Source: a virus
Lineage: Duplodnaviria; Caudoviricetes
Direction: 5' to 3' (one strand)
Length of the DNA: 35,400 nucleotides
IMG/VR virus record: IMGVR_UViG_3300038318_000223
Location: 1 to 35,400 of that record
Each line of letters starts with the position of its first letter. The stretch's first letter is position 1. Under the pieces are notes generated by a model. It was given only the letters and a program-made list of their open reading frames with translations, was not told where the DNA came from and did no database searches. Positions 3,564-30,168 of the stretch are shown here, one piece after another. Made by a program: the position numbers and the translations under genes.

Positions 3564-3684
3564 GATGCTGTGGCGGAGTGGTAGACGCTATCGGTACGGA
3601 GGGTTATTTAAATAAGTAAACCTCCTTGATATCGTAGGTTCTTAAAAAGGTAAATCCACGCAGGTTCGATTCCTGTCAGCATCA
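3564..3684 (+). tRNA. Atypical tRNA-like RNA (121 nt) with elongated anticodon and variable arms; no encoded CCA
   Basis: Acceptor GATGCTG/CAGCATC, discriminator A, class II-like D arm GCG-GAGTGGTAGA-CGC, T arm GCAGG-TTCGATT-CCTGT; about 35 extra nt in the central arms. Confidence 0.8.
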
Positions 3685-3725
3685 CAAATAACTAATAAAT
3701 AAAATATTAATTAAATAACTTAAAA

Positions 3726-8531: not shown

Positions 8532-8599
8532 CATCGGAATAACCGCTGTTTAAATTGCGTTTATGGAGTGTTATCGTGCGTTTCAATGCACGAAATAAA
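8529..8599. repeat. About 70-bp attC-like repeat, copy 1
   Basis: TAACATCGGAATAACCGC-loop-GCGTTTATGGAGTGTTA followed by the hairpin TCGTGC...GCACGA; near-identical copy at 10278-10351. Confidence 0.85.
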
Positions 8600-9097: not shown

Positions 9098-9370
9098 ATG
9101 AAAAGTAAATTACAACTACTGAAAGAGGCTAATGACATTTTGCGGTCAGTTAACTCGATAATTGAACGAAAAGGTAATATTACAAATTGGGAAGGAATTG
9201 ATAAAAAAGTGAAAATGGCATTAGCCGAGCAACATGAACTGCTGTTAGCAAAAAACTGCTATATATCCGATGTTACAAATCAGGTTTGCGGTGATTGCCT
9301 ATATTACCTTACTTGCAATAACGAAAGCCGAGATAAACAGATATGCGACAATTATGATAATGAACCATAG
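9098..9370 (+). CDS. Chimeric small protein with C-terminal Cys-rich module
   Basis: Linker KNCYISDVTNQV is encoded by AAAAAACTG-N10-GATGTT, homologous to 8390-8414; then CGDC...C...C. Confidence 0.7.
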   Translation: MKSKLQLLKEANDILRSVNSIIERKGNITNWEGIDKKVKMALAEQHELLLAKNCYISDVTNQVCGDCLYYLTCNNESRDKQICDNYDNEP

Positions 9371-9374
9371 CAAA

Positions 9375-9434
9375 TATAAATTTAAAAAATCTTTACAAAA
9401 ACTGCAAAACGTATTAAATTTTTGTGTATTTTTG
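9375..9434 (+). promoter_or_regulatory. Promoter (copy 1 of a 60-bp near-identical repeat)
   Basis: -7 box TATTTTTG 9427-9434; matches 11307-11366 with about three substitutions. Confidence 0.75.
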
Positions 9435-9448
9435 CAGTAGATTTTAAA

Positions 9449-9578
9449 AGCATACTTGAACATGAATAATTTTTTTAAGGAAATAAAAAGCACTAAGGAA
9501 GCCGTAAACCGAAAGGAGCGGAAGGGAAACAATCTTACCGATGTATGCTCCCTAATCTCTTCCTTTGTGCTTTTTTTT
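9449..9578 (+). ncRNA. Structured leader RNA, copy 1 (C4/CI-antisense-like topology)
   Basis: Outer stem AAAAGCACTAAGGAAG/CTTCCTTTGTGCTTTT, GAAA-capped hairpin, AGGGA/TCCCT helix; loop GTATGCT complementary to upstream AGCATAC; covaries with copy 2. Confidence 0.6.
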
Positions 9579-9622
9579 AATGGGATGAAAAACAAAATTA
9601 ATAACAATTAAAATTTACAACG

Positions 9623-9865
9623 ATGAAAACTTTAGCAACATTTAATTTAGAAAACATCCTTGCATCAGACGGGATTACAGAAATGAAAATTTGGGAAAAC
9701 AACGGTATTTACACATTAACAACTGGAAATAAAACTCCTGATTTTGACTTAGACAATTACGGGTGTGAAAATAAAGAGGATTTACTTTATTTAGCAAAAA
9801 GAAGCCTGAAAAGAGTGAAAGAAAATTCAGCAAACGAAGTAATTAATTTTATTGAAACCCTATAA
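9623..9865 (+). CDS. Hypothetical protein
   Basis: 80-aa ORF with A-rich leader downstream of the structured leader. Confidence 0.7.
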   Translation: MKTLATFNLENILASDGITEMKIWENNGIYTLTTGNKTPDFDLDNYGCENKEDLLYLAKRSLKRVKENSANEVINFIETL

Positions 9866-9876
9866 TAACTACCACG

Positions 9877-10269
9877 ATGAGAGCAATATCTAAAACACAA
9901 ATCGAAGCAATTGAAAAACTTGGTGGAACTATTCACGATGATTATATCACGTTTGAAGTTGAAAATCAAGAATACGGTGAACATTGTGATGATGAAGATA
10001 AAATATGGAATGAAATTCAAAAAATTATTCCTGGTGTAGATGGAGCAATGCAAGGACATCCGCTTGATGAAAGTGACTTGAATTACATCTACTTTAAAAT
10101 AGACTTTATACCATACCCAAAAGACTTTATTAATTGGGCTGAATTAAGCAGAACACTTGCAGGAGATAGGTCTGCAATTACAAGAAATAGAATTTCAGCA
10201 AAACATGAAGAAACTATTCAAACATTAATTAATTCAGTCGGTGAATGGTTAATTTCTTTGCGCTCTTAA
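9877..10269 (+). CDS. Two-domain protein with C-terminal HTH-like motif
   Basis: Acidic N-domain plus INWAELSRTLAGDRSAI, resembling an HTH. Confidence 0.6.
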   Translation: MRAISKTQIEAIEKLGGTIHDDYITFEVENQEYGEHCDDEDKIWNEIQKIIPGVDGAMQGHPLDESDLNYIYFKIDFIPYPKDFINWAELSRTLAGDRSAITRNRISAKHEETIQTLINSVGEWLISLRS

Positions 10270-10277
10270 ATGGGCGG

Positions 10278-10351
10278 TAACATCGTAATAAACGCTGTTT
10301 TAAGAATTGCGTTTATGGAGTGTTATCATGCGTTTCGATGCACGAAATAAA
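10278..10351. repeat. About 70-bp attC-like repeat, copy 2
   Basis: TAACATCGTAATAAACGC-loop-GCGTTTATGGAGTGTTATCATGCGTTTCGATGCACGAAATAAA. Confidence 0.85.
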
Positions 10352-10402
10352 TCCAAACTATTGTCGGTTAGCTAACGAAACTTTAAATGGAGGGCTTTTT
10401 AT

Positions 10403-11179
10403 ATGATTTTAAGAAGATTAGGAAATAAACAAAAAATTGCAAAGGAAATACAAAAGCATTTCCCACAGCATAGAATTTATATTGAACCTTTTTTTGGTGC
10501 TGGTGGTATGTTTTTTAATAAACCAAAAGCAAACTATAATTTAGTTAATGATATTGATAACGATGTTTTTAATTTATTTCAAGTTGCTACGAATAACAAA
10601 AACGAATTGAAAGAAGCGTTTAAATTAATGCCAATACACGCTGGATTATTAGAACACTGGAAGAAAAATAATGAAACAGACCCTATAAAAAAGGCTTTAA
10701 GGTTTATATTTTTAAGCAACTTTACATTTTTGGGAACTGGACAGCAAATGAGGTTTACAGCAACTAAAAATGAATATCCTGAAAACTTTGAATATTTGCT
10801 TGATGCAACTGCAAAATATCTTTTTGGTGTGCAGTTTGGCAATACTGATTTTAGAAAGTTTATAAAGGATATTTCTTTTCAAACTGATGGAAGAAATGAT
10901 GAGGCAAAAACTCTAATTTATGCAGACCCCCCATACATTGCAACAAATGATAATTACAGCCATTCATTTACCGAACAGGATAGCGTTGATTTATTTGATA
11001 CACTACAAAATAGCAAGTGTATGTTTGCAATGAGTGAATTTGACAATGAGTTTATTTTAAACCAAGCAAAAGAACGCAAATTGAATATAATTTACATTGG
11101 AGAAAGAACCAATTTAAAAAATAAACGAACTGAAATATTAATAACGAACTATGAGAACGCACCGACTTTATTTTCCTAA
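10403..11179 (+). CDS. DNA adenine methyltransferase (Dam/D12 class, orphan)
   Basis: GNK, YIEPFFGAGG, NDID, YADPPY, EILITNY. Confidence 0.93.
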   Translation: MILRRLGNKQKIAKEIQKHFPQHRIYIEPFFGAGGMFFNKPKANYNLVNDIDNDVFNLFQVATNNKNELKEAFKLMPIHAGLLEHWKKNNETDPIKKALRFIFLSNFTFLGTGQQMRFTATKNEYPENFEYLLDATAKYLFGVQFGNTDFRKFIKDISFQTDGRNDEAKTLIYADPPYIATNDNYSHSFTEQDSVDLFDTLQNSKCMFAMSEFDNEFILNQAKERKLNIIYIGERTNLKNKRTEILITNYENAPTLFS

Positions 11180-11306
11180 TGGTTTTGAAAAAACAATGGA
11201 ATTTACGAAAACCGTTCTCACGTTGGAAGCGGAAGCGAAAGAATATCCGATAATAGACTTTCCAACAATGTAAAAATATTATACTTACAATGAAATTTAA
11301 AACGAT

Positions 11307-11366
11307 TATAAATTTAAAAAATCTTTACAAAAGCTGCAAAACGTATTAAAATTTTGTGTACTTTTG
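11307..11366 (+). promoter_or_regulatory. Promoter (copy 2) upstream of the replication operon
   Basis: -7 box TACTTTTG 11359-11366; duplicate of 9375-9434. Confidence 0.75.
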
Positions 11367-11378
11367 TATTGAAATTAA

Positions 11379-11515
11379 TCAGAGTTAAAAATGTATATTA
11401 TTTTTTTAAAACATATTAAAAGCATAAAGGAAGCCGTAACCTGTAAAGAACGGAAAGCTAAACTTTCTACCCTAAACTCTGAGCTTATTTCCTTCCTTTT
11501 TGCTTTTATTTTTTT
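11379..11515 (+). ncRNA. Structured leader RNA, copy 2
   Basis: Outer stem AAAAGCATAAAGGAAG/CTTCCTTTTTGCTTTT, GTAA-capped hairpin, AAGCT/AGCTT helix; loop AACTCTGA complementary to upstream TCAGAGTT. Confidence 0.6.
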
Positions 11516-11527
11516 AGGAGAATTACT

Positions 11528-12007
11528 ATGAAAGAGTTTTTTGAAAAAACACTTGAAGACATTATTTTTAATACAGATAATGAATTGTTATGTGAACATG
11601 GATTGATAATTTCAGGCAAAAAATTAAGACAAGTAAAAATAGGAAATTACGGGATTGCTGATTTAATAACATACAATATTGAAAGGGATTATATATATGA
11701 TAATTACTTAAATATAGCATTGTATGAATTAAAAAGAAAAGAAATAAATAATAATTCTTTTATGCAAGCTATTGGATATATTAAGGGGATAATAGAGTAT
11801 TTAAATAAAAGACAATTTTCAAATTATAAATTAGAAATAATTAATTTATCTGATAATTTTGTTTATTTACCTTCTTTATATACCGATAAAATAGAATATC
11901 CTTTACAATCTATATGTAATATAGAATATTATACTTATGATTATAATTTTAATGGAATAACGTTTATAGATTGTAATGATTATAATTTAGTAGATAAAGG
12001 TTTTTAA
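11528..12007 (+). CDS. PD-(D/E)XK restriction-endonuclease-like protein (NucS C-domain-like)
   Basis: EKTLED...RQVKIG.YGIADL...YELK...QAIGY. Confidence 0.7.
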   Translation: MKEFFEKTLEDIIFNTDNELLCEHGLIISGKKLRQVKIGNYGIADLITYNIERDYIYDNYLNIALYELKRKEINNNSFMQAIGYIKGIIEYLNKRQFSNYKLEIINLSDNFVYLPSLYTDKIEYPLQSICNIEYYTYDYNFNGITFIDCNDYNLVDKGF

Positions 12008-12008
12008 T

Positions 12009-12878
12009 ATGAGCGAATATAGAATTAACGGTTTTGAGCAAATAAAGGCATTTTATTCGTGGGTGTTTAATAATGCAAAAGAAAGAGTAACGCCTCAACA
12101 TATTAGTTTATACTTATTCCTTATCAATCAAAATAATAGAAGTAATTGGATAGAGTGGTTTAAGGTTCCGTTTGATTTAGGTATGGCTGGTGCTTGTATT
12201 GGTAATAAGAAAACATACTATTCATGTTTAAATGATTTAGTTTCATGGAATCTTATAGAATATGAGAAAGGAACTAACGAATACAAGGCACCGTTAATAA
12301 AAATAGCGGTACTAAAAAGTACCTCACATGATACCGCTGCTGTACCTCTACCAGAACCGCTACTGCAACCGCTGCCTACTACTCTACCTATACCGCTACC
12401 TACCCATATATATAAACTAATAACAGATAACATAAAACTAATAACAGATAACGAAGTAAAATTTGAAAAATTCATTGAATCATTAAAAGAAAATATTAAT
12501 AAAGAAAATAAAAGTAAAGAAAATAATAAAGAAGATGAAATTCCAATCGATGAAAAACCATTTAATTATTTAGAATATCATACTTATTATGATTTGGTAG
12601 AACATGCTAAAAAAGAAGAATCATGGTTTAATTCATTACTGCGACTTTTAAAATTAGAAAAAGAAACAATTTTAAGTGAATTAGAAAATTTTCCTATAGT
12701 ACAAGAAGCCAAAGGAAACAAAATAACTAATTTAAAAGAATTTAAAAATCATTTTTTTAATTACATGAATTTAAGAAAAGACGATTTAAGAAAAGTAGAG
12801 CGCAAAAAATCTGAAATCAGCATTGTAGACCGTTTAGAAATTGAACGACAAAAATATTTTGAAATATTAAAAAAATAA
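12009..12878 (+). CDS. Phage replication initiator protein
   Basis: N-terminal wHTH-like domain, Pro-rich linker with DNA repeats, position directly before dnaB. Confidence 0.75.
   Translation: MSEYRINGFEQIKAFYSWVFNNAKERVTPQHISLYLFLINQNNRSNWIEWFKVPFDLGMAGACIGNKKTYYSCLNDLVSWNLIEYEKGTNEYKAPLIKIAVLKSTSHDTAAVPLPEPLLQPLPTTLPIPLPTHIYKLITDNIKLITDNEVKFEKFIESLKENINKENKSKENNKEDEIPIDEKPFNYLEYHTYYDLVEHAKKEESWFNSLLRLLKLEKETILSELENFPIVQEAKGNKITNLKEFKNHFFNYMNLRKDDLRKVERKKSEISIVDRLEIERQKYFEILKK
12345..12452. repeat. Iteron-like repeats (putative origin) inside the initiator gene
   Basis: Five 12-bp units resembling CCGCTACCTAnn (12345-12404), AAACTAATAACAGATAAC twice (12414-12431, 12435-12452), then an A-rich tract. 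Confidence 0.6.
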
Positions 12879-12882
12879 CAAA

Positions 12883-14247
12883 ATGGAATTAGCAAAAGTA
12901 CTGCCGTATAATTTAGATTTTGAAAAAGCATTATTGGGAATATGCATTTTAGAAGGAAAATCAATTTATGAAATAGTTGATATTATAAATACAGATATGT
13001 TTTACGACATTAAACATCAAACTATTTATAAGCACCTTGTAAGAATGTTTCGGGAAGGGGTACAAATAGATTTGCTTTCATTAGGAAAATCAATAATCCA
13101 AAGAAATGAAAAGGAAGTCATCGGGGGGTTTGAGTATTTATCCGAACTAACGAACCGAATAAGTTCATCAGCTAATATTGAGTATTACGCTGTTATGATT
13201 AAAGAATACTATATAAAGCGTAGTATAATAACATTCAGTGCGGAACTAAATACAAAAGCATATTTCGAAGCCGAAACGCTTGATAGTTTGGTGGAGTACA
13301 TTGATAAACGTATATTTGAAATAACAAATTATTGCTATGGAAAATCAACGATTGAACATGTAAGCGTTCCAGTTACCAAAGCATTAGAAGAAATACACGA
13401 AAGAATACAAGCAAATAAAAGCGGTAAACCTCTTGGCATTCCTACACCGATAACTAAATTAAATAACATATTAAACGGTGGATATAAGACAGGATTACAC
13501 ATATTAGCAGCACGACCAGCAATGGGGAAAACGTCTTTTATGCTATCAATTGCAAAAATGTCAGTCCATTTTGATAAAATTCCTTTGATATTTTCTCTTG
13601 AAATGACAAACAAACAATTAGCCGACAGGTTGATATTATCTGAATTGGATGATTCGGTACAAACAGATAGGTATAGAAACGGATGGATGGATGATCTTGA
13701 ATTCAAAAAAGTTGTCGATGCATCGTTATTGGCTAAGAACATGAATATGTATTTTGATGACAACAGCTGCGTTTCATTTAGTTATATAAAATCAACGTCT
13801 TATAAGAAAAAAAAACAAGGCGCTTGTGATATTATATTTATTGACTATTTGCAACTTATGGATATAAAACAGGAAAAAGGACAAACGAGGGATATGGCAA
13901 TTGGAAACATTACAAGACAATTAAAAGCATTGTCAAAAGAATTAGACGTGCCTATTATTCTTTTAAGTCAATTGAATCGGAGCAGCGAAGAGAACAGAGG
14001 GAAAATACCGACATTATCAAACCTTAGGGAAAGCGGGAACATCGAACAGGATGCCGACAGCGTGCTTTTCATTCATCGTCCTGAGTATTATGATAACACA
14101 GAAGAAAAAGGGCATGGAAAATTGATAATGGCAAAACACAGGAACGGAGCCACGACCGGAGAGATAGATTTCTATTACAATGAAAGTTTAACTAAAATAT
14201 TTAATGAACCGATAATTGAAATATTTGATTATAATGCAACATTTTAA
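12883..14247 (+). CDS. dnaB: Replicative DNA helicase DnaB
   Basis: ILAARPAMGKT, FSLEM, IFIDYLQL, LSQLNR, LRESGNIEQDAD, AKHRNG. Confidence 0.97.
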   Translation: MELAKVLPYNLDFEKALLGICILEGKSIYEIVDIINTDMFYDIKHQTIYKHLVRMFREGVQIDLLSLGKSIIQRNEKEVIGGFEYLSELTNRISSSANIEYYAVMIKEYYIKRSIITFSAELNTKAYFEAETLDSLVEYIDKRIFEITNYCYGKSTIEHVSVPVTKALEEIHERIQANKSGKPLGIPTPITKLNNILNGGYKTGLHILAARPAMGKTSFMLSIAKMSVHFDKIPLIFSLEMTNKQLADRLILSELDDSVQTDRYRNGWMDDLEFKKVVDASLLAKNMNMYFDDNSCVSFSYIKSTSYKKKKQGACDIIFIDYLQLMDIKQEKGQTRDMAIGNITRQLKALSKELDVPIILLSQLNRSSEENRGKIPTLSNLRESGNIEQDADSVLFIHRPEYYDNTEEKGHGKLIMAKHRNGATTGEIDFYYNESLTKIFNEPIIEIFDYNATF

Positions 14248-16512: not shown

Positions 16513-17343
16513 ATGGGAAAAATAATTTATGAATCAAAAGGGAAAGCACAAGAGTATGGTAAATACGGAGTAAGTGCATATATTGGATGTTCCAACAAAT
16601 GTGAATATTGTTATCTAAAAACAGGAAGGTTTAAATCTGTATTAGGTGGTAATATACCAAAATTAAAGAAATGTCTCAGAGATGAAGAACATGCTTACAC
16701 AATGTTTGCAAAAGAGTTAAGAAACAATTTAGGAGAGTATCAAAAGTATGGATTATTTATTGCATTTTCGTCCGATCCTATGTTACCTAAAACATTCAGA
16801 TTGACAAGAAATATTGCATGGGAATGTGTTACAAATAAAGTACCAATAAAAATACTATCAAAAGACGCAGATATAGGAAATATAAATTCTATTGTATTTA
16901 ACACATTTTATGATATGTTTGTATTAAATTTAAATGAATGTAGAAAATATGTAGCTTTTGGATTTACCTTGACAGGACACGACGAACTTGAACCAAAAGC
17001 AAGCCCGAACACTGAAAGAATAGAAGCAATGAAATTACTTCACAATGAAGGATTTCTAACATTTGCAAGTATTGAACCTATAATTGATTTTACGGCAAGC
17101 ATGGATATGATTGATAAATCGTTAGAATTTTGCGACCTATATTTAATCGGTTTAAAATCTGGTCAACAATTTGACAAATATTCAGAACTTAATTTAATTA
17201 AATTTTTTAATACAGTTTGGAAGCGAGTGCAAAAATACAATAAAAAAGTCTATTTTAAAGATTCGTTATTAAAAGCAGCAGGAATAGATCGTAAGAACTT
17301 ACCGGAATGTTGTGTTGATAGAGACTATAATTTATTTAAATAG
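16513..17343 (+). CDS. Radical SAM protein (spore-photoproduct-lyase-like clade)
   Basis: GCSNKCEYCY (CxxxCxxC), SSDP, ILSK, EP.AS...RI, SIEP. Confidence 0.85.
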   Translation: MGKIIYESKGKAQEYGKYGVSAYIGCSNKCEYCYLKTGRFKSVLGGNIPKLKKCLRDEEHAYTMFAKELRNNLGEYQKYGLFIAFSSDPMLPKTFRLTRNIAWECVTNKVPIKILSKDADIGNINSIVFNTFYDMFVLNLNECRKYVAFGFTLTGHDELEPKASPNTERIEAMKLLHNEGFLTFASIEPIIDFTASMDMIDKSLEFCDLYLIGLKSGQQFDKYSELNLIKFFNTVWKRVQKYNKKVYFKDSLLKAAGIDRKNLPECCVDRDYNLFK

Positions 17344-17350
17344 AAATATC

Positions 17351-18036
17351 TATGAAATATATCCTTGTAACAAAAAAACTACAATTCGAGATGATAAAAC
17401 TAACCGATGATACGAGTAATTAACTTTAATATTAATCACAATCCCTATACGGGGTTATAAAACGGCTTTTTTATGAAAACATATGTACTATTAGTCAGCA
17501 GAACGTTTCCGAAAGGGCATAAAATGGAAGGAGAACCCACATTCTTTGTAGAAAAGATATTAGCTGCATTAGGATTTCCCTATTTAAATGATGAGAATAT
17601 TAAAAAGTTTCACACATGCCGAAAAAATTATGAATTATGGGCAAAACGCATCAAGGAAGTACAAGAAGGTAAAGCTATATTAAGTTTACGCTATTGGAGT
17701 GATAAACCATATCGAAGCAAGCAAGTTGAATTTGCATGTTTAGATAAGGATTCGGGCGTGGGAGTGCAAAAACTTTTATTCGGAATTAATGATTTGCTTT
17801 ACCCAATTGCAGGGGAAGGAATTTGGCTTAGAGGATTAAATCTTGAAAATTTAGCCAAAAACGACGGTCTCTCAATTGACGATTTTAAAGACTGGTTTAA
17901 AAATTATGATTTGAGCAAACCTATGGCAATTATACAATTCACGGAGTTTCGCTATTAATAATTAAATATAAATATAATAAATAAAAATGGAAGAAAATAA
18001 TAAAATCATATGAAATATATCCTTGTAACAAAAAAA
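17351..18036 (+). repeat. 28-bp perfect direct repeat of a gene start, flanking an inserted gene
   Basis: TATGAAATATATCCTTGTAACAAAAAAA at 17351-17378 and 18009-18036. Confidence 0.9.
17473..17958 (+). CDS. ASCH/PUA-like domain protein
   Basis: KFHTCR, and LAKNDGLS..DF..WF near the C-terminus. Confidence 0.6.
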   Translation: MKTYVLLVSRTFPKGHKMEGEPTFFVEKILAALGFPYLNDENIKKFHTCRKNYELWAKRIKEVQEGKAILSLRYWSDKPYRSKQVEFACLDKDSGVGVQKLLFGINDLLYPIAGEGIWLRGLNLENLAKNDGLSIDDFKDWFKNYDLSKPMAIIQFTEFRY

Positions 18037-19098
18037 GCAACAAGCAAAGAAGGAAATTTAACTTACTATCCGAACGAAGTAATTATTGCAAGGAATAATA
18101 TAAGTCAAAATAAGTGGTATAAAATAATAACAGATAAAGAGTTATTGGCATTCTACTACGATAAAATTGATAAAAAATGCAATAACGTTTTGATAATTTG
18201 CGGAGGTGGAATCGGCGATATAATCGCTTATTCGGCACTGTGTAAATATTTACATGAAAAAGGCAAAAATGTACATTTTGCAACACAAAAAAAGTATTTT
18301 GACATATTGAAATGGTTCCAAACTCCGGTTGAAATTTTGGACGTAGAAAAGCCAATTTTTAGAGATTTTTCATTGAGTAATAGAATTTCAAAGTACAACA
18401 CATGGAGAAGAATATTTACGGAATTGATTATTCCGAATCATAACGAAAGCGATTGGTTTGAAGTGATATTTGCCTATGCAGGAATAGAAAAGATTGAAGA
18501 TAGTTATTTTAGGCCTCAGCTAAAAACAAACAGACTAACAAGAAAGAAATCAAATATTGATAAAAAACAAAAGTCGCTTCTTATCTGCAACCAATCGAGC
18601 TGCATGATGCGAAATATTGAGTTTGATGAAATCTACCGAGCAATCCCTGAAGATGTAAAAAAAGACTACAAAATATATGCTTATATGAATAATTTATCTG
18701 TTTCGGATAAAATTCATAGAGAGAATAAAAAATATAAGGATGTTGAGTTTATCAATTCCCCTACCCTTTCCGACTTTCTCAACGACCTCTATGATGTTAC
18801 GGATGTAATAACAGTTGATAGTGCAGCGGTACATTTCCGTGAAGGGATAAATAAACGCTGCCTTGCTTTGTATAATTCCTTTGATAAAGATTGTAGAACA
18901 AAGTATTACAAGTATATAACAGCCGTAAATATAAAATCTGAATGCGATAAACAGCCTTGCTTCAAACATGAACTTAATAAGGGTGATTTATGCGAAAAAG
19001 TCAAAGAATGGCAGTATTCTGCTCCTTGCTTCCGGAGTGAATCAAACAAATTCTTACAGCCGGAATTTAAAAGAATTTTTAATGAGTATTTTAAATAA
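18010..19098 (+). CDS. Glycosyltransferase family 9 (heptosyltransferase-like)
   Basis: GGGIGDII, VITVDSAAVH and Cys-rich C-terminus (C..QPC). Confidence 0.8.
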   Translation: MKYILVTKKATSKEGNLTYYPNEVIIARNNISQNKWYKIITDKELLAFYYDKIDKKCNNVLIICGGGIGDIIAYSALCKYLHEKGKNVHFATQKKYFDILKWFQTPVEILDVEKPIFRDFSLSNRISKYNTWRRIFTELIIPNHNESDWFEVIFAYAGIEKIEDSYFRPQLKTNRLTRKKSNIDKKQKSLLICNQSSCMMRNIEFDEIYRAIPEDVKKDYKIYAYMNNLSVSDKIHRENKKYKDVEFINSPTLSDFLNDLYDVTDVITVDSAAVHFREGINKRCLALYNSFDKDCRTKYYKYITAVNIKSECDKQPCFKHELNKGDLCEKVKEWQYSAPCFRSESNKFLQPEFKRIFNEYFK

Positions 19099-19115
19099 CA
19101 ATAAAAAATAACACT

Positions 19116-19799
19116 ATGTTTACAAGATGTCCAATTTGCGAAAGTAGAACAAATCATTTTTTCAATGTTCCTTTTATCAAAGAAATTAACGTACCTAAAA
19201 AATACGATATACTGATTCAATATAATCGCTGCCCTGAATGCGATTATATCTTTGCTCCTATGTTCAATGCTTGGACTGAAAAGGATTTCAAAGAGCATAT
19301 CTATAACGAAGATTATATAAAATATGACCCTGAATTCCTCAAAATACGCCCGCACACGAACGCAAAACAGTTTTATGATATATTGAAAGGGAAAAGGCAT
19401 TTAGACTACGGAGGAGGCTCCGGAAGGATGAGCAACACCTTAAAAGCTTCCGGAATTGATTCGCATTCGTATGATGTTTTTTATAGTAAAGCAAGACCAA
19501 CCGGACAATTTGATGTAGTTACCTGTATTGAAGTATTGGAGCATAGCATTGACCCTTTGAAAATATTTTCTGATATATTTTCCCTGTTAAAACAAAAAGG
19601 AACTTTAATTCTTAAAACTTCAATTGTTGATTTTTGGAATTGTAAAAACGATTATGAATTTTCACAGCATTGGTACGTGGCTCCTCGAAATGGACATATC
19701 GGTTTTTATTCCATAAAAACATTACAGCTTATTGCAGATAAAACCGGTTTCAATTATAGCCAAAACTCCCCTGCAGAAAATATCTTTATCAAATTATAG
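19116..19799 (+). CDS. Class I SAM-dependent methyltransferase with N-terminal Zn ribbon
   Basis: CPIC...CPEC, LDYGGGSG, FDVVTCIEVLEH, PRNGHI. Confidence 0.88.
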   Translation: MFTRCPICESRTNHFFNVPFIKEINVPKKYDILIQYNRCPECDYIFAPMFNAWTEKDFKEHIYNEDYIKYDPEFLKIRPHTNAKQFYDILKGKRHLDYGGGSGRMSNTLKASGIDSHSYDVFYSKARPTGQFDVVTCIEVLEHSIDPLKIFSDIFSLLKQKGTLILKTSIVDFWNCKNDYEFSQHWYVAPRNGHIGFYSIKTLQLIADKTGFNYSQNSPAENIFIKL

Positions 19800-19903
19800 T
19801 TAATTATATTATAATAGATGTTATAGTTTAATACTCTTTATTCGTTATTCTTTAGTTTTTTCTTAAATTTCAAAAATCCTTCCAAAAATCTACATGCTGA
19901 AAA

Positions 19904-19945
19904 CGTAACTGCTTGATAAATTAAAACCATTATCAATGAGTTACG
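19904..19945. repeat. Inverted repeat made of two IHF-consensus-like sites
   Basis: CGTAACTgcTTGATAA-N10-TTATCAAtgAGTTACG; each half matches WATCAAnnnnTTR. Confidence 0.7.
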
Positions 19946-20013
19946 AGAGTTGATGTAAATTAATTTAATTGTATTACAATAATTTTCTAATTCTATTTAA
20001 GTATTTACTAATG

Positions 20014-20047
20014 GAGGGCAGCTTTAAAAGTTGCTCTCTTTTTTTTT
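20014..20047 (+). terminator. Intrinsic terminator at the early/late boundary
   Basis: GAGGGCAGCTT...AAGTTGCTCTC followed by T9. Confidence 0.85.
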
Positions 20048-20109
20048 CTACAAAAACAACCTCTTTTCCGTATTATAGAAATATTTTTAAAAAAAAATCA
20101 AAAAAATAA

Positions 20110-20139
20110 CAAATTGTATTTAGATAATGCTTATATTTG
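20110..20139 (+). promoter_or_regulatory. Promoter of the modification/packaging operon
   Basis: TATATTTG at 20132-20139 (TAnnTTTG). Confidence 0.6.
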
Positions 20140-20156
20140 CGGAAAATTATGAAAAA

Positions 20157-20537
20157 ATGCATTACGTATCAAAGAAGTTGGAAATATCGGCATCTCATAA
20201 ACTGCATTTAGACTATGAAAGCAAATGCTCTAACTTACATGGACACAATTGGAAAGTAACTGTGCATTGTAAAGCAAAAGAACTTAATAATAACGGAATG
20301 GTAGTTTATTTTACCGAAATCAAGAAACTGATTCACGATAAACTTGACCATCAAAGTTTAAATTACATTCTTCCTTTCAATCCTACAGCGGAAAACATTG
20401 CAAAATGGATTTACGATAAGTGGAAATTGCAAAACGATGCGTGGAGCCAAGAAAAACGGCAAAATGACATCGAGTTATCTTACAGGAGTATTCAAAGAAG
20501 ATTCCCTTGCAAGAAGCGAATTTATGAACTTAATTAA
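20157..20537 (+). pseudogene. queD: 6-carboxytetrahydropterin synthase QueD, 3'-truncated and fused out of frame to folE sequence
   Basis: SASH...C.NLHGHNW...GMVV.F...LDH..LN...PTAENIA; similarity stops at AKWIYD and the last strands (V.E) are missing. Confidence 0.8.
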
Positions 20538-20544
20538 AAAATAA
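20428..20544 (+). pseudogene. folE: C-terminal remnant of GTP cyclohydrolase I (FolE)
   Basis: Alternative frame reads CKTMRGAKKNGKMTSSYLTGVFKEDSLARSEFMNLIKK*, matching the FolE C..MRG...TS...G.F.....R.EF signature. Confidence 0.8.
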
Positions 20545-20545
20545 A

Positions 20546-21229
20546 ATGGCAAAAGTTAAAAACGCAAAGATATCCGACTTGATTCCGGATGATAAAAATG
20601 CAAACAAAGGAACGGAATATGGTAAACATTTAATGGATAAATCATTCCGACAATTCGGGGCAGGACGTTCAATTTTGCTTGACAAAAATAATAAAATAAT
20701 TGCAGGAAATAAAAGTACAGAACAGTGTGCCGAAATAGGCATTGAAGATGTAATCATTGTTGAAAGCGATGGCACCAAGTTAATAGCAGTTAAACGAACT
20801 GATATTGATATTGACACAAAACAAGGAAGAGATTTATGTTTGGCTGACAACGCTACTCAAAAAGCTAATCTTGAATGGGATAAAGATATTGTGCAATCAT
20901 TAGCTTCTACTTTTGATATTGAAGTAAAAGAGTGGGGTATTGATATCCCGGAAACAATTGAAACATTAGAAAAAATAAATTTAAACGATGCTGAATTTGA
21001 AACAGGAATAAATAAATATAACGACAAAAATTGCCAACTACCAATTGTTAAAGAGTTTTTTGAAACACATGAATGTTTTATAATTCCAATACACAACGAA
21101 ATTGATGAAAAATTCATAAGAGAGATATTTTGTTTAAATGAAAATTATATTTCAGATTGTGGAGATGGAAAAATTAGAAAAACAAATGTTATAGATATTC
21201 AAAAGATAAAATCATGTCTGTTAAAATAA
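20546..21229 (+). CDS. ParB/Srx N-terminal domain protein
   Basis: KISDLIPD.KNAN...S..QFG.GRSILLD.NN.IIAGN...ADN; typical of terminase-proximal DNA-modification loci. Confidence 0.8.
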   Translation: MAKVKNAKISDLIPDDKNANKGTEYGKHLMDKSFRQFGAGRSILLDKNNKIIAGNKSTEQCAEIGIEDVIIVESDGTKLIAVKRTDIDIDTKQGRDLCLADNATQKANLEWDKDIVQSLASTFDIEVKEWGIDIPETIETLEKINLNDAEFETGINKYNDKNCQLPIVKEFFETHECFIIPIHNEIDEKFIREIFCLNENYISDCGDGKIRKTNVIDIQKIKSCLLK

Positions 21230-21942
21230 TAGTACCTTCAAAAGGCAGGGCTTCAAATGTTCTAACTAAAATCGATTCACAAATTTTGTGTGTTGATATA
21301 ACGGAATTAGATGAATATAAAAAATTTAACGATTGTGAAATTATAACACACAATTCATTAAAAAATCTATCATCAATAAGGCAATTTTTGTATGAAAATT
21401 ACAAAGATTTATTTATGGTTGATGATGATATTGTAAGTGTTGAAAGACTTTATAATGTAAATAATCAAAAATTAACAGAAATAGAAATAAAAAATATTAT
21501 TGACGATTGCTATTACAATACAAAAAATATCGGAGCTAAATTATTTGGATTCAATAATGATCCAAAACCAGTTCATTATAATCAACATAAACCTTTCATG
21601 TTAAACGGATATATAAATGGTTGTGCAATTGGCTTAATTCAAGATAAGCATTTATTCTTTAATGAAAATACAACAGCCTGTGAATCACATTGGATTAATT
21701 TATTAAATGCTTATTATAATAGATTTTGTTTTATTGATAAGAGATTTCATTTTAGACAAAAAGCAAATTCAACATTTCTACTCGAAGGAGGACAAGCCGG
21801 GAAACGCACTATGCAGACAGAAAAATACGATACTATTTTATTAAAAAAAATATTCGGCGATTCAGTTGTAGTTAAAAAAGAAAAAAATAAAATAAAACAA
21901 CTACATGAGTATCAAAGACAATTAAATATAAGATTATGGTAG
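21214..21942 (+). CDS. GT-A fold glycosyltransferase (GREB1/TET-associated-like)
   Basis: IIVPSKGR, R, FMVDDDI (DxD) and a late GG motif. Confidence 0.65.
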   Translation: MSVKIIVPSKGRASNVLTKIDSQILCVDITELDEYKKFNDCEIITHNSLKNLSSIRQFLYENYKDLFMVDDDIVSVERLYNVNNQKLTEIEIKNIIDDCYYNTKNIGAKLFGFNNDPKPVHYNQHKPFMLNGYINGCAIGLIQDKHLFFNENTTACESHWINLLNAYYNRFCFIDKRFHFRQKANSTFLLEGGQAGKRTMQTEKYDTILLKKIFGDSVVVKKEKNKIKQLHEYQRQLNIRLW

Positions 21943-22268: not shown

Positions 22269-22782
22269 TAAAAGGATAGTTAAAAATATTTGTTCCTTAA
22301 TAAAGAAGGATAGTTATACTATTGCTGAAATATGCTCACAGATAGGCATTAACATAGATACTTATTACGATTGGCTAAAAAACAAACCCGAATTTTCCGA
22401 AGCAATTAAAAATGCTAAAGGTGAATACGATGAATTTATTGCAGCGGAAGCGAAAAAATCTTTACTTAAAAAAATACAAGGCTATACGGTTCAAGAAAAG
22501 AAAGTTGTAATGGTTGAAAGTAAAGACAAAGATGAAAGCGGAAAGTTTAAACCTAAAATCAAGGAGCAAACAATTATAGATAAGCACTATCAACCGGACA
22601 CAGCAGCAATAATATTTACATTAACAAACAAAGTTCCGGAAGAATATCAAAATAAATACAATACTGAACTAACCGGAAAAGATGGCAAGGACTTAGTTCC
22701 TGAACCTATTACGGTAAGAATAATTGACGATAAAGAACAGCTAAATGGAAATACTGACAACAAAGATATATCGGGAGGTTGA
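22255..22782 (+). CDS. terS: Terminase small subunit
   Basis: N-terminal HTH (IAEIC..IGI..DTYYDW), PDTAAIIF.L.N, ELTGKDG; directly before terL. Confidence 0.85.
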   Translation: MAKYNKRIVKNICSLIKKDSYTIAEICSQIGINIDTYYDWLKNKPEFSEAIKNAKGEYDEFIAAEAKKSLLKKIQGYTVQEKKVVMVESKDKDESGKFKPKIKEQTIIDKHYQPDTAAIIFTLTNKVPEEYQNKYNTELTGKDGKDLVPEPITVRIIDDKEQLNGNTDNKDISGG

Positions 22783-25033
22783 GCAGGCATATAGAGAAGG
22801 CTACACAACGTTATCCGCTCAAGGTTCAGCTCGATGCTTTGCAGAGGGAACTCTTGTGCGTATGTATGATGGCAGATTAAAGGCAGTTCAACTCATAGAG
22901 ATTGGGGATAAAGTAATGAATATACAGGGAGATGGGTATAATACTGTTATCTCTACACATAAAGGAAATAGCAAGCTGTATAAAGTTAAGCAGAAAAGAG
23001 GGGTTGATTATATTGTAAATGAAAATCATATACTTTCATTAAAGCAAACAAGGACACAGGGTCGAAAAATAGCTATTGAGGGCTACAAGAGTGCCGAAAA
23101 AAGGAAATGGGTATATGAGCCATTTGATAAAGAAAAAATACACGACTTCGATGTTAAGTATTTTACACAGCAAAGCGAAAAGTTTAGATTAAAATATACG
23201 GGATTTAAAAATACAATGTGCCATTTGCCAGAAAAGGAGACAATGATTGATCCTTATTATCTTGGAATGTGGCTTGGCGATGGGTGTTCGATAAGACCTC
23301 ATGAAATAACAAATATTGATAACGAAATTAAAGAATGGTTTTATGACTTTGCTAAAACACTCGATACATATGCCTATAAAGTTGATGCAGTTACTCACAG
23401 ATTTATGATTTGTGAAGAGGGTACTAAAAATAAATCTTTAAAAGGGAAAACAAGAGAATTTAGAGATAGTTTCAGAGACTATGATTTGATAAAAAATAAA
23501 CATATACCTGAAGACTACATATACAATTCATATGAAAATAGATTGAAGTTATTGGCAGGTTTAATAGATAGTGATTGGTGTAGCACAGGAAGAAAAACAA
23601 TATCTATTTCCCAAAAAAATAGAAGAATACTTGAGGGAGTTTTAGAAATATGCAGAATTAGCGGTTTTTACACGAATGGAATTATAGAGGTAAATGCCAA
23701 TATGAAAAGAGCCAACGGAACTTTATACAAAAGCAAGGCGTATTCCATTGAAATAAACCATTCTAACTTCAAAGACTTAAACAAATATATTAAAGTGCCA
23801 AGAAAACGAATAGAGGGCAAAGATTGCAATAGAAATTATTTCAGCACAACTATATCAATAGAAAATGCAGGAGTTGGAGATTACTTTGGCTTTGAGTTAG
23901 ACAATTCTCCATATTTCACGATAGAAGATGGCACGGTTTGTCATAATAGTTCAAAAACTTATAACATTGTTATTTGGATAATTACATTTTGTTTGCTTAA
24001 TCAAGGCACAAGAATATCTATCGTGCGTGGAACACTTCCGGCATTGAAAGGCTCCGTTTTGGTAGACTTCAAAGAAATAATGATGAACATGCTGTTGTGG
24101 GACAGCAAGCAATTTAATAAATCTGAGTTAGTTTATACATTTCCAAACGGCTCGTGGATTGAATTTTTCAGCACCGATAACGAACAAAAGCTAAGGGGCA
24201 GGAAGAGGGATATATTATTTGCAAACGAAGCTAACGAACTTACGGCCTTAGAATTTCAGCAATTAAAACTTAGGACAACAAAATTTTCGATAATTGACTA
24301 TAATCCCTCTTTTACGGATGAACATTGGATAAACAAACTCAACAAAGACCAACGAACAAAACACGTCTTATCTACTTATAAAGACAATCCTTTCCTTGAA
24401 CAGACCATTATAGATGAAATTGAAAGTTTGCGTACAAAGAATGACAGCCTTTGGAAGATTTATGGGTTAGGAATACAAGCAGCCATTGAAGGATTGATAT
24501 TTAAAAATATAGAGATTATTGATGAATATCCGTTTGTTAAGAATAACTTATACGGGATGGATTTCGGCTTCACAAATGACCCTTCGACTGCTGTAAAATT
24601 ATCAATTGACGGATCGAGAAAAAATGTTTATGTGGATGAAGTATTCTATCGAACTCACATGCTTACATCAGATATTATCAAAGAATTAAAAATAAACAAT
24701 ATCAATAGAATAATAAGTGAAAGTGCAGACCCGAGAATGATTCAAGAAATCAAAAATGCAGGTATAAACGCTATTCCTGTAGATAAATATCAAGGCTCTG
24801 TGAAAGCAGGAATCACAAAAATGCTTGAATATAGATTTTGTATCACAAGACGAAGTACAAATATAATCAAAGAATTTAGAAACTACACCTATCAGCAAGA
24901 TAAAGAAGGGAAATGGTTGAATTTGCCAATAGATGCCTTCAATCATGCTATTGATGCTATAAGATACATATTCCTTACCGAAATACTCGGCAAAGGAAAG
25001 AGAATAAAAGACTTAACCGGAATATTTTATTAA
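22745..25033 (+). CDS. terL: Terminase large subunit (PBSX-like) containing an intein
   Basis: Spliced Walker A QGSAR|SSKT, NEANE, DYNP, GMDFG..NDP, NHAIDAIRY. Confidence 0.95.
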   Translation: MEILTTKIYREVEQAYREGYTTLSAQGSARCFAEGTLVRMYDGRLKAVQLIEIGDKVMNIQGDGYNTVISTHKGNSKLYKVKQKRGVDYIVNENHILSLKQTRTQGRKIAIEGYKSAEKRKWVYEPFDKEKIHDFDVKYFTQQSEKFRLKYTGFKNTMCHLPEKETMIDPYYLGMWLGDGCSIRPHEITNIDNEIKEWFYDFAKTLDTYAYKVDAVTHRFMICEEGTKNKSLKGKTREFRDSFRDYDLIKNKHIPEDYIYNSYENRLKLLAGLIDSDWCSTGRKTISISQKNRRILEGVLEICRISGFYTNGIIEVNANMKRANGTLYKSKAYSIEINHSNFKDLNKYIKVPRKRIEGKDCNRNYFSTTISIENAGVGDYFGFELDNSPYFTIEDGTVCHNSSKTYNIVIWIITFCLLNQGTRISIVRGTLPALKGSVLVDFKEIMMNMLLWDSKQFNKSELVYTFPNGSWIEFFSTDNEQKLRGRKRDILFANEANELTALEFQQLKLRTTKFSIIDYNPSFTDEHWINKLNKDQRTKHVLSTYKDNPFLEQTIIDEIESLRTKNDSLWKIYGLGIQAAIEGLIFKNIEIIDEYPFVKNNLYGMDFGFTNDPSTAVKLSIDGSRKNVYVDEVFYRTHMLTSDIIKELKINNINRIISESADPRMIQEIKNAGINAIPVDKYQGSVKAGITKMLEYRFCITRRSTNIIKEFRNYTYQQDKEGKWLNLPIDAFNHAIDAIRYIFLTEILGKGKRIKDLTGIFY
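22835..23947 (+). mobile_element. Intein (371 aa) with LAGLIDADG homing-endonuclease domain
   Basis: Begins CFAEGTLV, block B NENH, ends VCHN followed by Ser; LGMWLGDG and LAGLIDSDW motifs. Confidence 0.93.
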
Positions 25034-29547: not shown

Positions 29548-30168
29548 ATGTATTACTCACAATTTCAAGAGGATAAATTTATAGTAGAATATTGTCAAAG
29601 ATACAATATTAACCTTATCCCTGTATGTGTCGAAATCGGTGCAAGTGATGGGAAAGATATTTCAAATATCAGGCATTTTTGCTTGAAGGGATGTAAAGGT
29701 ATTTATGTTGAGCCTATCCCGATAAGGTTTGAGCAATTGAAAAAAAATACTATCGGTCAAGATGTTATACTGTATAATAGTGCATGTATACCGGAAGGAG
29801 CGAATAAAGAGGTTAAATTCAAGATAGAATCATGCTTCGATTTTAGCCATATTTCCGAAGAAAATTATAATTTGATTGCACGAGGAATCTATTGGAGCGA
29901 AATCACGAAGGATATTACAGATGTAGGGGTACTTTCTATTGATGTAGAAGGCTATGAAACGCCTATTCTTAAAGATGTGTTGAAATCACGGATAAGGCCG
30001 CAATTCATCATTATTGAAAGCAACCTTACAACCGAGAGACACGCTCAAATGAAAATGCTTTTACGCTCTAACTACTATTTAATGAAAATGAAAAGCAAAA
30101 ATAATGTTTGGATGGATTCAAGAATATTCACTCAAGAACAAGATAATGCTATTTATAATACGTTATGA
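29548..30168 (+). CDS. FkbM-family methyltransferase
   Basis: YSQ..ED, VEIGA.DG...SN, G..VEP, LSIDVEG.E, IIIE. Confidence 0.88.
   Translation: MYYSQFQEDKFIVEYCQRYNINLIPVCVEIGASDGKDISNIRHFCLKGCKGIYVEPIPIRFEQLKKNTIGQDVILYNSACIPEGANKEVKFKIESCFDFSHISEENYNLIARGIYWSEITKDITDVGVLSIDVEGYETPILKDVLKSRIRPQFIIIESNLTTERHAQMKMLLRSNYYLMKMKSKNNVWMDSRIFTQEQDNAIYNTL

Follow-up and report, generated by a model that had tools for sequence, protein, structure and literature searches.

The stretch analysed here (35,400 nt; from here on: the window) is the tailed-phage record IMGVR_UViG_3300038318_000223 (Duplodnaviria; Caudoviricetes; 35.4 kb), which has a GC content of 31.7% and is 67% complete. Its plus strand carries two copies of a leader element, each consisting of a promoter repeat, a two-part target, an upstream open reading frame (uORF) and a predicted three-way RNA junction (Table 1). 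Copy 1 precedes two small genes, and copy 2 precedes gene 11528, followed by a likely replication initiator gene and a DnaB-like helicase gene. An earlier sequence-only reading had described the two loci as a duplicated promoter with a covarying three-helix leader RNA and copy-specific long-range pairing, a C4/CI-like switch of which one copy would gate a replication operon, and the position of copy 2 agrees with the last point. The phage host is likely a member of the Bacteroidota, because both promoter repeats end in TAnnTTTG, located at the positions given in Table 1, which we take to be the Bacteroidota-type promoter box, and because relatives of gene 11528 occur in Cellulophaga and Bacteroides phages. 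Sequencing runs containing DNA of the window came from fermentation, wastewater and bioreactor samples.

Table 1 Leader copies 1 and 2 and the genes behind them, with positions in the window
Feature	Positions	Strand	Remarks
Copy 1 promoter repeat	9375..9434	+	TAnnTTTG box 9427-9434; putative promoter activity
Copy 1 target a (AGATT)	9439..9443	+	complements junction strand 9554-9558 (AATCT)
Copy 1 target b (AGCATAC)	9449..9455	+	complements 9543-9549 (GTATGCT); 6 nt 5' of uORF start
Copy 1 uORF, 49 codons	9462..9611	+	spans whole fold; stop 11 nt 5' of gene 9623
Copy 1 predicted three-way junction	9485..9578	+	P1 9485-9501/9559-9575; P2 9502-9521, GAAA loop; P3 9523-9527/9549-9553 (strands AGGGA/TCCCT); b' 9543-9549; a' 9554-9558; U-tract 9571-9578
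Genes behind copy 1	9623..10269	+	80 aa, no family; 130 aa, C-terminal phrog_34662 match, function unassigned
Copy 2 promoter repeat	11307..11366	+	TAnnTTTG box 11359-11366; putative promoter activity
Copy 2 target a (GAAAT)	11371..11375	+	complements 11487-11491 (ATTTC)
Copy 2 target b (TCAGAGTT)	11379..11386	+	complements 11475-11482 (AACTCTGA); 4 nt 5' of uORF start
Copy 2 uORF, 46 codons	11391..11531	+	spans fold; stop overlaps start of gene 11528 by 4 nt (ATGA)
Copy 2 predicted three-way junction	11417..11515	+	P1 11417-11433/11492-11508; P2 11434-11453, GTAA loop; P3 11455-11459/11482-11486 (strands AAGCT/AGCTT); b' 11475-11482; a' 11487-11491; U-rich tail to 11515
159-aa phage protein	11528..12007	+	likely PD-(D/E)XK/NucS-like nuclease fold, from weak leads only
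289-aa protein, likely replication initiator	12009..12878	+	no family itself; same-position gene in relatives matches initiator/DnaD-like PHROGs
DnaB-like replicative helicase	12883..14247	+	

The two 60-bp promoter repeats, previously called near-identical, share 95% identity, and the loop and leader motifs as well as the strands of the third helix were all recovered at the positions first assigned to them. Two parts were absent from that description: the uORF in each leader, and a second, 5-nt pairing (a:a') in addition to that of the tag b with the anti-tag b'. Here, a' is a run of five unpaired bases that links P3 to the 3' arm of P1, and its partner is the 5' end of the leader, upstream of tag b. 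On the minus strand, a TAnnTTTG box (9593-9600) points towards copy 1; copy 2 is without a counterpart.

Both cores yield the same predicted three-way junction (z −4.01 for copy 1 and −3.57 for copy 2), with 0 and 1 of 200 shuffles, respectively, as stable, in line with the common fold that had been claimed; when the 5' leader is added, the z values are just −1.4 and −1.7. The proposed covariation holds in so far as 53 of 55 pair cells are standard and four of 28 pairs are altered on both sides, which is not significant alone since only two sequences enter the test and 43 of 500 shuffles equal it. Shuffling reproduces the copy-specific match between loop and leader with a probability of 0.053 for copy 1 and 0.008 for copy 2; hence the match of copy 1 is borderline alone, and its strength comes from the relatives described below. 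For the a:a' match, the probability by chance is 0.07 and 0.06, respectively. The pairing letters, or keys, of the two copies appear orthogonal as suggested, with predicted energies of −12.0 and −14.2 kcal/mol for the cognate a-b duplexes versus −4.3 and −4.0 kcal/mol after swapping. P2 carries a GNRA cap, and an invariant GGAAGCCGTA...CGGAA core is found in three sequences. This P2 core presumably resembles both domain V of group II introns and c-di-GMP-I; Rfam gave neither.

As direct scans with the core gave chance matches only, relatives were gathered via gene 11528, using the 80 top-ranking of 89 viral loci and, likewise, the top 80 of 219 metagenomic ones (labelled L145-L304). A TAnnTTTG box is situated 85-230 nt upstream in 130 of these 160 loci, there is none in 18, and 12 end too early; the 130 boxed loci reduce to 84 distinct leaders. 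Under a fixed rule, by which tag and anti-tag form a perfect match of at least 6 nt with at least 3 G/C between the first 40 nt and the remainder, a match exists in 70 of the 84 leaders versus 914 of 6972 mismatched pairs (13%), showing that the complementarity postulated for the window is kept in homologues. At 7 nt the figures are 66 of 84 leaders versus 5.4% of mismatched pairs, and the best of 10,000 permutations reached 24. Among 74 leaders there are 68 different keys. Of 77 leaders examined, 65 have a recognisable U-run, and in 51 of them it follows the end of the anti-tag at a distance of 16-22 nt. Two leaders with different keys within one locus are also present in L231 and L157. The gene following the nuclease-like gene is almost always 190-310 codons long and only a few bases away, and 20 of 30 sampled proteins encoded there match initiator, DnaD-like or primosomal PHROGs belonging to several unrelated families; leader and nuclease-like gene thus stay in front of replication genes despite initiator exchange. 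A further copy of the tag lies immediately upstream of the main start codon in L155, L231, L261 and the second L231 leader near 1718, a two-target layout as in phages P1 and P4. Another element, ATACG-GAA-YGTATG, recurs in the last 16 nt before the start codon in L148, L152-L154, L156, L157 and many more of L145-L304; it might fold into a mini hairpin covering the nuclease-like gene's start codon, and the window does not have it.

The 77 tagged leaders, including the window copies, display the tag in a 5' hairpin loop (42), unpaired before an AUG (12) or in neither way (23). In the AUG class, b lies 0-6 nt before the AUG of the uORF. A second upstream pairing of at least 5 nt is found in five of the ten AUG-class leaders from outside the window (permutation p 0.0005) versus one of the 42 hairpin-type leaders. 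The uORF reaches the base of the hairpin in all 16 AUG-type leaders (12 by rule plus four with tags picked by eye) versus 18 of 32 other frames (Fisher p 0.0016); it passes the 3' end of the hairpin in 11 of the 16 and ends inside it or at its base, far from the next gene, in five. An ATGA overlap between uORF and gene exists in copy 2, L225 and L241, and copy 1 stops 11 nt short; translational coupling of the uORF to the next gene is what we infer from this arrangement. A functional uORF peptide was considered and rejected, because L225 reads the core in another frame. By eye, the leaders L164, L166, L249, L194, L150 and L176 combine a 5' hairpin loop with an unpaired tag, matched by two stretches in a branched terminator stem, and the 5' hairpins of L150 and L194 resemble c4-a1b1 target hairpins. 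The related two-part leader L194/L374 belongs to the cultured Cellulophaga phage Nekkels_1. The kiss strand of hairpin-type leaders starts with [G/U/C]-U-R-R in 23 of 42 cases (shuffled tags: mean 7.4, maximum 16), like C4 a1 loops; behind this may lie either homology or the preference that kissing loops have in general for U-turns (accessible part of PMC4485353).

The exact three-helix form was seen four times, in copies 1 and 2, in L225 and in a 234-nt contig of sequencing run X2. L225, the sole match to a covariance model of the two copies among 166 sources, scores 53 bits and has a third GNRA loop variant, a predicted three-stem fold, a 6-bp a:a' match, an ATGA overlap reached via a frame other than that of the window copies and a box-to-core distance of 62 nt as in the window (counted by hand). 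The X2 relative differs at 18 of 199 positions (91% identity); three of its eight b:b' pairs are changed on both sides and all eight are kept, and its net frame is unchanged, so that the frame from uORF to gene is preserved (read by hand). Exact-core scans of viral contigs returned 120, 22 and 19 loci without a further three-helix member, those inspected being chance-like, and a scan of species genomes returned 48 loci, of which the seven inspected after a filter for GC and closing stem were likewise chance-like. In Bacteroidota genomes, searched first in a set of five and later in one of 151, the two-copy model found nothing but repeat-like hairpins. A blastn search of 50,697 phage records yielded short AT-rich matches only, and homologue searches with the genes behind copy 1 recovered no leader. 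In the open-access literature, which leaves subscription papers and some supplements outside its coverage, no description of the element was found. Rfam gave nothing near a gathering score over the window or either copy, the hits at E ≤ 10 over each copy being chance hits of at most 19 bits. We conclude that a real, uncatalogued covarying leader exists here, with C4/CI-like wiring, one target box and a uORF running through it.

The likeness to C4 is best seen in the immI region of phages P1 and P7, arranged as a1 b1 - C4 RNA - a2 b2 - icd - ant1 (RF01695; NC_005856.1). In the phage P1 record NC_005856.1, C4 folds as a three-stem junction whose junction strand is the partner of a1 (7 nt) and whose P3 loop is the partner of b1 (8 nt). 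A gap of 10 nt separates b2 from icd downstream of it, and icd and ant1 have 4 nt in common. The accessible part of PMC5320573 describes C4 with three stems, processing by RNase P and blocked ribosome binding, using a'/b' labels that differ from those of this record. The window elements share with C4 the three-stem junction, the tetraloop-capped P2, a' after P3 in the junction strand and b' in the P3 loop; the target order a-spacer-b (spacer of 7 nt between a1 and b1 in phage P1, 5 and 3 nt in the window); a b box followed closely by a small ORF, which shares 4 nt at its stop with the start of the next gene (in the window, copy 2); and a specificity set by exchangeable letters. Unlike phage P1, the window has one target box, upstream, its small ORF begins before the RNA and crosses it, stem P1 runs into a U-tract where C4 has a processed end, and the genes under control would be those for a nuclease-like protein, an initiator and DnaB, with no antirepressor. 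Downstream, copy 1 has no a-b box; at copy 2, the first codons of gene 11528 include a 7-nt complement of the P3 loop, but there is no clear a partner; a 6-nt downstream partner occurs in 10 of 74 leaders versus 4% by chance. The models RF01695 (C4) and RF02944 (c4-2), run alone, gave no match, which speaks against membership in C4/CI. The earlier interpretation is thus supported in part: the three-stem layout, the two antisense stretches, the a-b order, the small ORF, the orthogonal keys and the position before replication genes speak for a C4/CI-like anatomy, and a second, downstream target box and a match to these models were not found.

P4 CI offers a further, functional analogy: according to the accessible part of PMC4825925, it acts through seqA and seqC to halt transcription of replication genes. 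As in P4 (NC_001609.1), a leader-derived RNA would act on its own transcript through two-part targets and cause premature termination before replication genes; unlike here, P4 has targets on both sides and acts in the lysogen, while no integrase was detected in 26 carrier records. In guanidine-IV (GGAM-1; accessible part of PMC7736828), too, a terminator-type stem has a loop that base-pairs with a 5' element; there the ligand-binding nucleotides are conserved, unlike the paired letters here, which change freely, and the relatives' leaders and the copies gave no Rfam match. The two-hairpin kissing-loop leaders of Bacteroidota phages (the 42 of 77 above) share the promoter type, the gene family behind and the spacing between anti-tag and U-run; what sets the window apart from them is that its two-part target is unpaired, that a uORF is present and that the fold is a three-way junction containing a GNRA hairpin.

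The explanation we tentatively prefer, giving it a little under an even chance, is that each copy is a uORF-coupled attenuator whose own terminated transcripts turn it off in trans. In a newly made transcript, P1 would be kept open either by a ribosome that has entered the uORF or by pairing in cis of a and b with a' and b' before the 3' arm of P1 emerges, and read-through into the operon would follow; at copy 2, the ribosome would be handed on to gene 11528 at the ATGA overlap. In stopped transcripts P1 would fold and b' and a' would be displayed. As these RNAs of approximately 140 nt accumulate, they would bind a and b of later transcripts, so that neither the uORF start nor pairing in cis would be available and P1 would close. 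The outcome would be a negative-feedback timer or copy counter for replication genes, with distinct keys preventing crosstalk between the two circuits of a genome. In P4, termination is prevented when the leader is translated. In length-by-length folding, the a/b state is at least 0.93 once b' is out and until the 3' arm of P1 is partly out; it is 0.72 at 9564 and 1.0 at 11499, and the P1 state is 1.0 at full length. About 14 nt of transcript are held inside RNA polymerase, which would place the polymerase on the U-tract at these lengths; cis pairing or a ribosome on the uORF would thus favor read-through.

Several observations weigh against this trans-feedback attenuator. The U-tract stem is no canonical terminator: its loop is multibranch, and for that reason a terminator scan of 9300-11700 found none. 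As pseudoknots are excluded by the folding program, the competition between the a/b state and P1 is partly imposed by the model; a terminated RNA might also mask its own a' and b'. The layout classes and windows were defined after viewing the data, four of the 16 AUG-type tags were chosen by eye, and at a 6-nt threshold the second pairing is present in one of ten leaders and not significant. L225 has just four b:b' pairs and an a/b state that is never dominant, and in the X2 relative the a:a' match falls to about 3 bp; given these patterns, the b pairing and the uORF are well supported and the a pairing is supported by the class but inconstant. Copy 2 has no coverage in X15 and X19, the RNA-labelled runs, which is uninformative, and action in trans by the stopped leader is a step that we infer.

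Much of the same evidence would fit a gate acting in cis only, in which tag and anti-tag pair within one transcript and set the level of read-through, fixed or protein-tuned, by obstructing terminator-stem closure, in line with a steric model put forward for guanidine-IV (accessible part of PMC7736828). The fixed spacing between anti-tag and U-run, the predicted persistence of cis pairing as polymerase reaches the U-tract and the fact that cis covariation accounts for every alignment are all consistent with it. Such a gate needs no new key per copy, yet the window copies share promoter and core and not the key, and keys differ throughout the relatives (68 of 74); this counts for little, since drift of a free pairing could do the same, and we regard cis-only action as possible though doubtful. 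A translational damper, in which the uORF start is masked by pairing in cis, so that less of a nuclease-like and possibly harmful protein is made by coupled translation, and in which the U-tailed stem serves to stabilise or process the RNA and not to terminate it, would explain why b lies so close to the uORF AUG, the ATGA overlaps in three leaders and the lack of a canonical terminator call. It seems distinctly unlikely, as the 42 of 77 hairpin-type leaders, mostly without an AUG behind the tag, keep the geometry of anti-tag and U-run, and as the uORF in five of 16 leaders ends far from the next gene.

Another candidate is a true C4/CI-type immunity RNA, processed from the leader as C4 is by RNase P into a trans-acting RNA of ~77 nt, by which a prophage would keep its lytic genes off and block superinfection. 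It would suit the topology and target order shared with C4 of phage P1, the likeness of tags in hairpin-type leaders to c4-a1b1 loops, and the precedent of P4 CI, which controls replication genes by premature termination (PMC4825925, in its accessible part). We consider it very unlikely: besides the missing C4 and c4-2 model matches and downstream a2/b2 box, no tyrosine integrase, resolvase or ParA occurs in the 26 carrier records and an S24 repressor in only one, 16 of these records being at least 90% complete but the window (67%) and the three uORF-type records of the set (42-59%) incomplete, and the neighbouring gene family was not found in 401 Bacteroidota genomes in a search without a positive control. 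We give even less credence to a ligand-sensing riboswitch of the c-di-GMP-I or guanidine-IV type, or a pT181-type counter-transcript attenuator. The GNRA-capped P2 with its invariant core would suit the former and the minus-strand box facing copy 1 the latter, but the pairing letters are not conserved, the c-di-GMP-I model RF01051, run alone, scored three candidates of which none reached E ≤ 10, Rfam returned only the chance hits mentioned above for each copy, and an opposite-strand box of the TAnnTTTG type, the only type looked for with regard to pT181/pIP501-like control, lies downstream in two of 77 leaders.

Other features of the window are recorded here in their own right. A 47-nt repeat, 96% identical between 8553-8599 and 10305-10351, flanks the region of copy 1, and its second copy is part of a stretch (10275-10352) predicted to form an imperfect DNA hairpin. 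The gene for the terminase large subunit (22745-25033) contains Hint and homing-endonuclease domains within its N-terminal half, likely an intein. Genes for radical SAM proteins, glycosyltransferases, methyltransferases and a QueD-like protein at 16513-21942 and 29548-30168 likely constitute a DNA or surface modification cluster. A tRNA-like stretch with a T-arm at 3564-3687 has a weak tmRNA match (E 0.008, 16 bits), and ARAGORN made no call.

Judged from its sequence, the element is a variant on the C4/CI theme that is uncatalogued in Rfam. RNAs of the C4/CI type have been catalogued for Proteobacteria and their phages as lysogeny controls (PMC2864571, Table 1, as far as accessible). A wider view, which we hold to be rather improbable, would unite the two-hairpin, tag-before-uORF and three-way-junction leaders in one large uncatalogued C4/CI-related family of re-keyable RNA counters, by which non-integrating Bacteroidota phages throttle replication by time or copy number with a separate key per circuit and phage. 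If the trans-feedback attenuator is true, the C4/CI logic would extend to Bacteroidota phages without sign of integration and to a new use, replication feedback during infection; the two-hairpin leaders would be tied to a testable mechanism, and natural sets of orthogonal RNA switches would be at hand for Bacteroidota.

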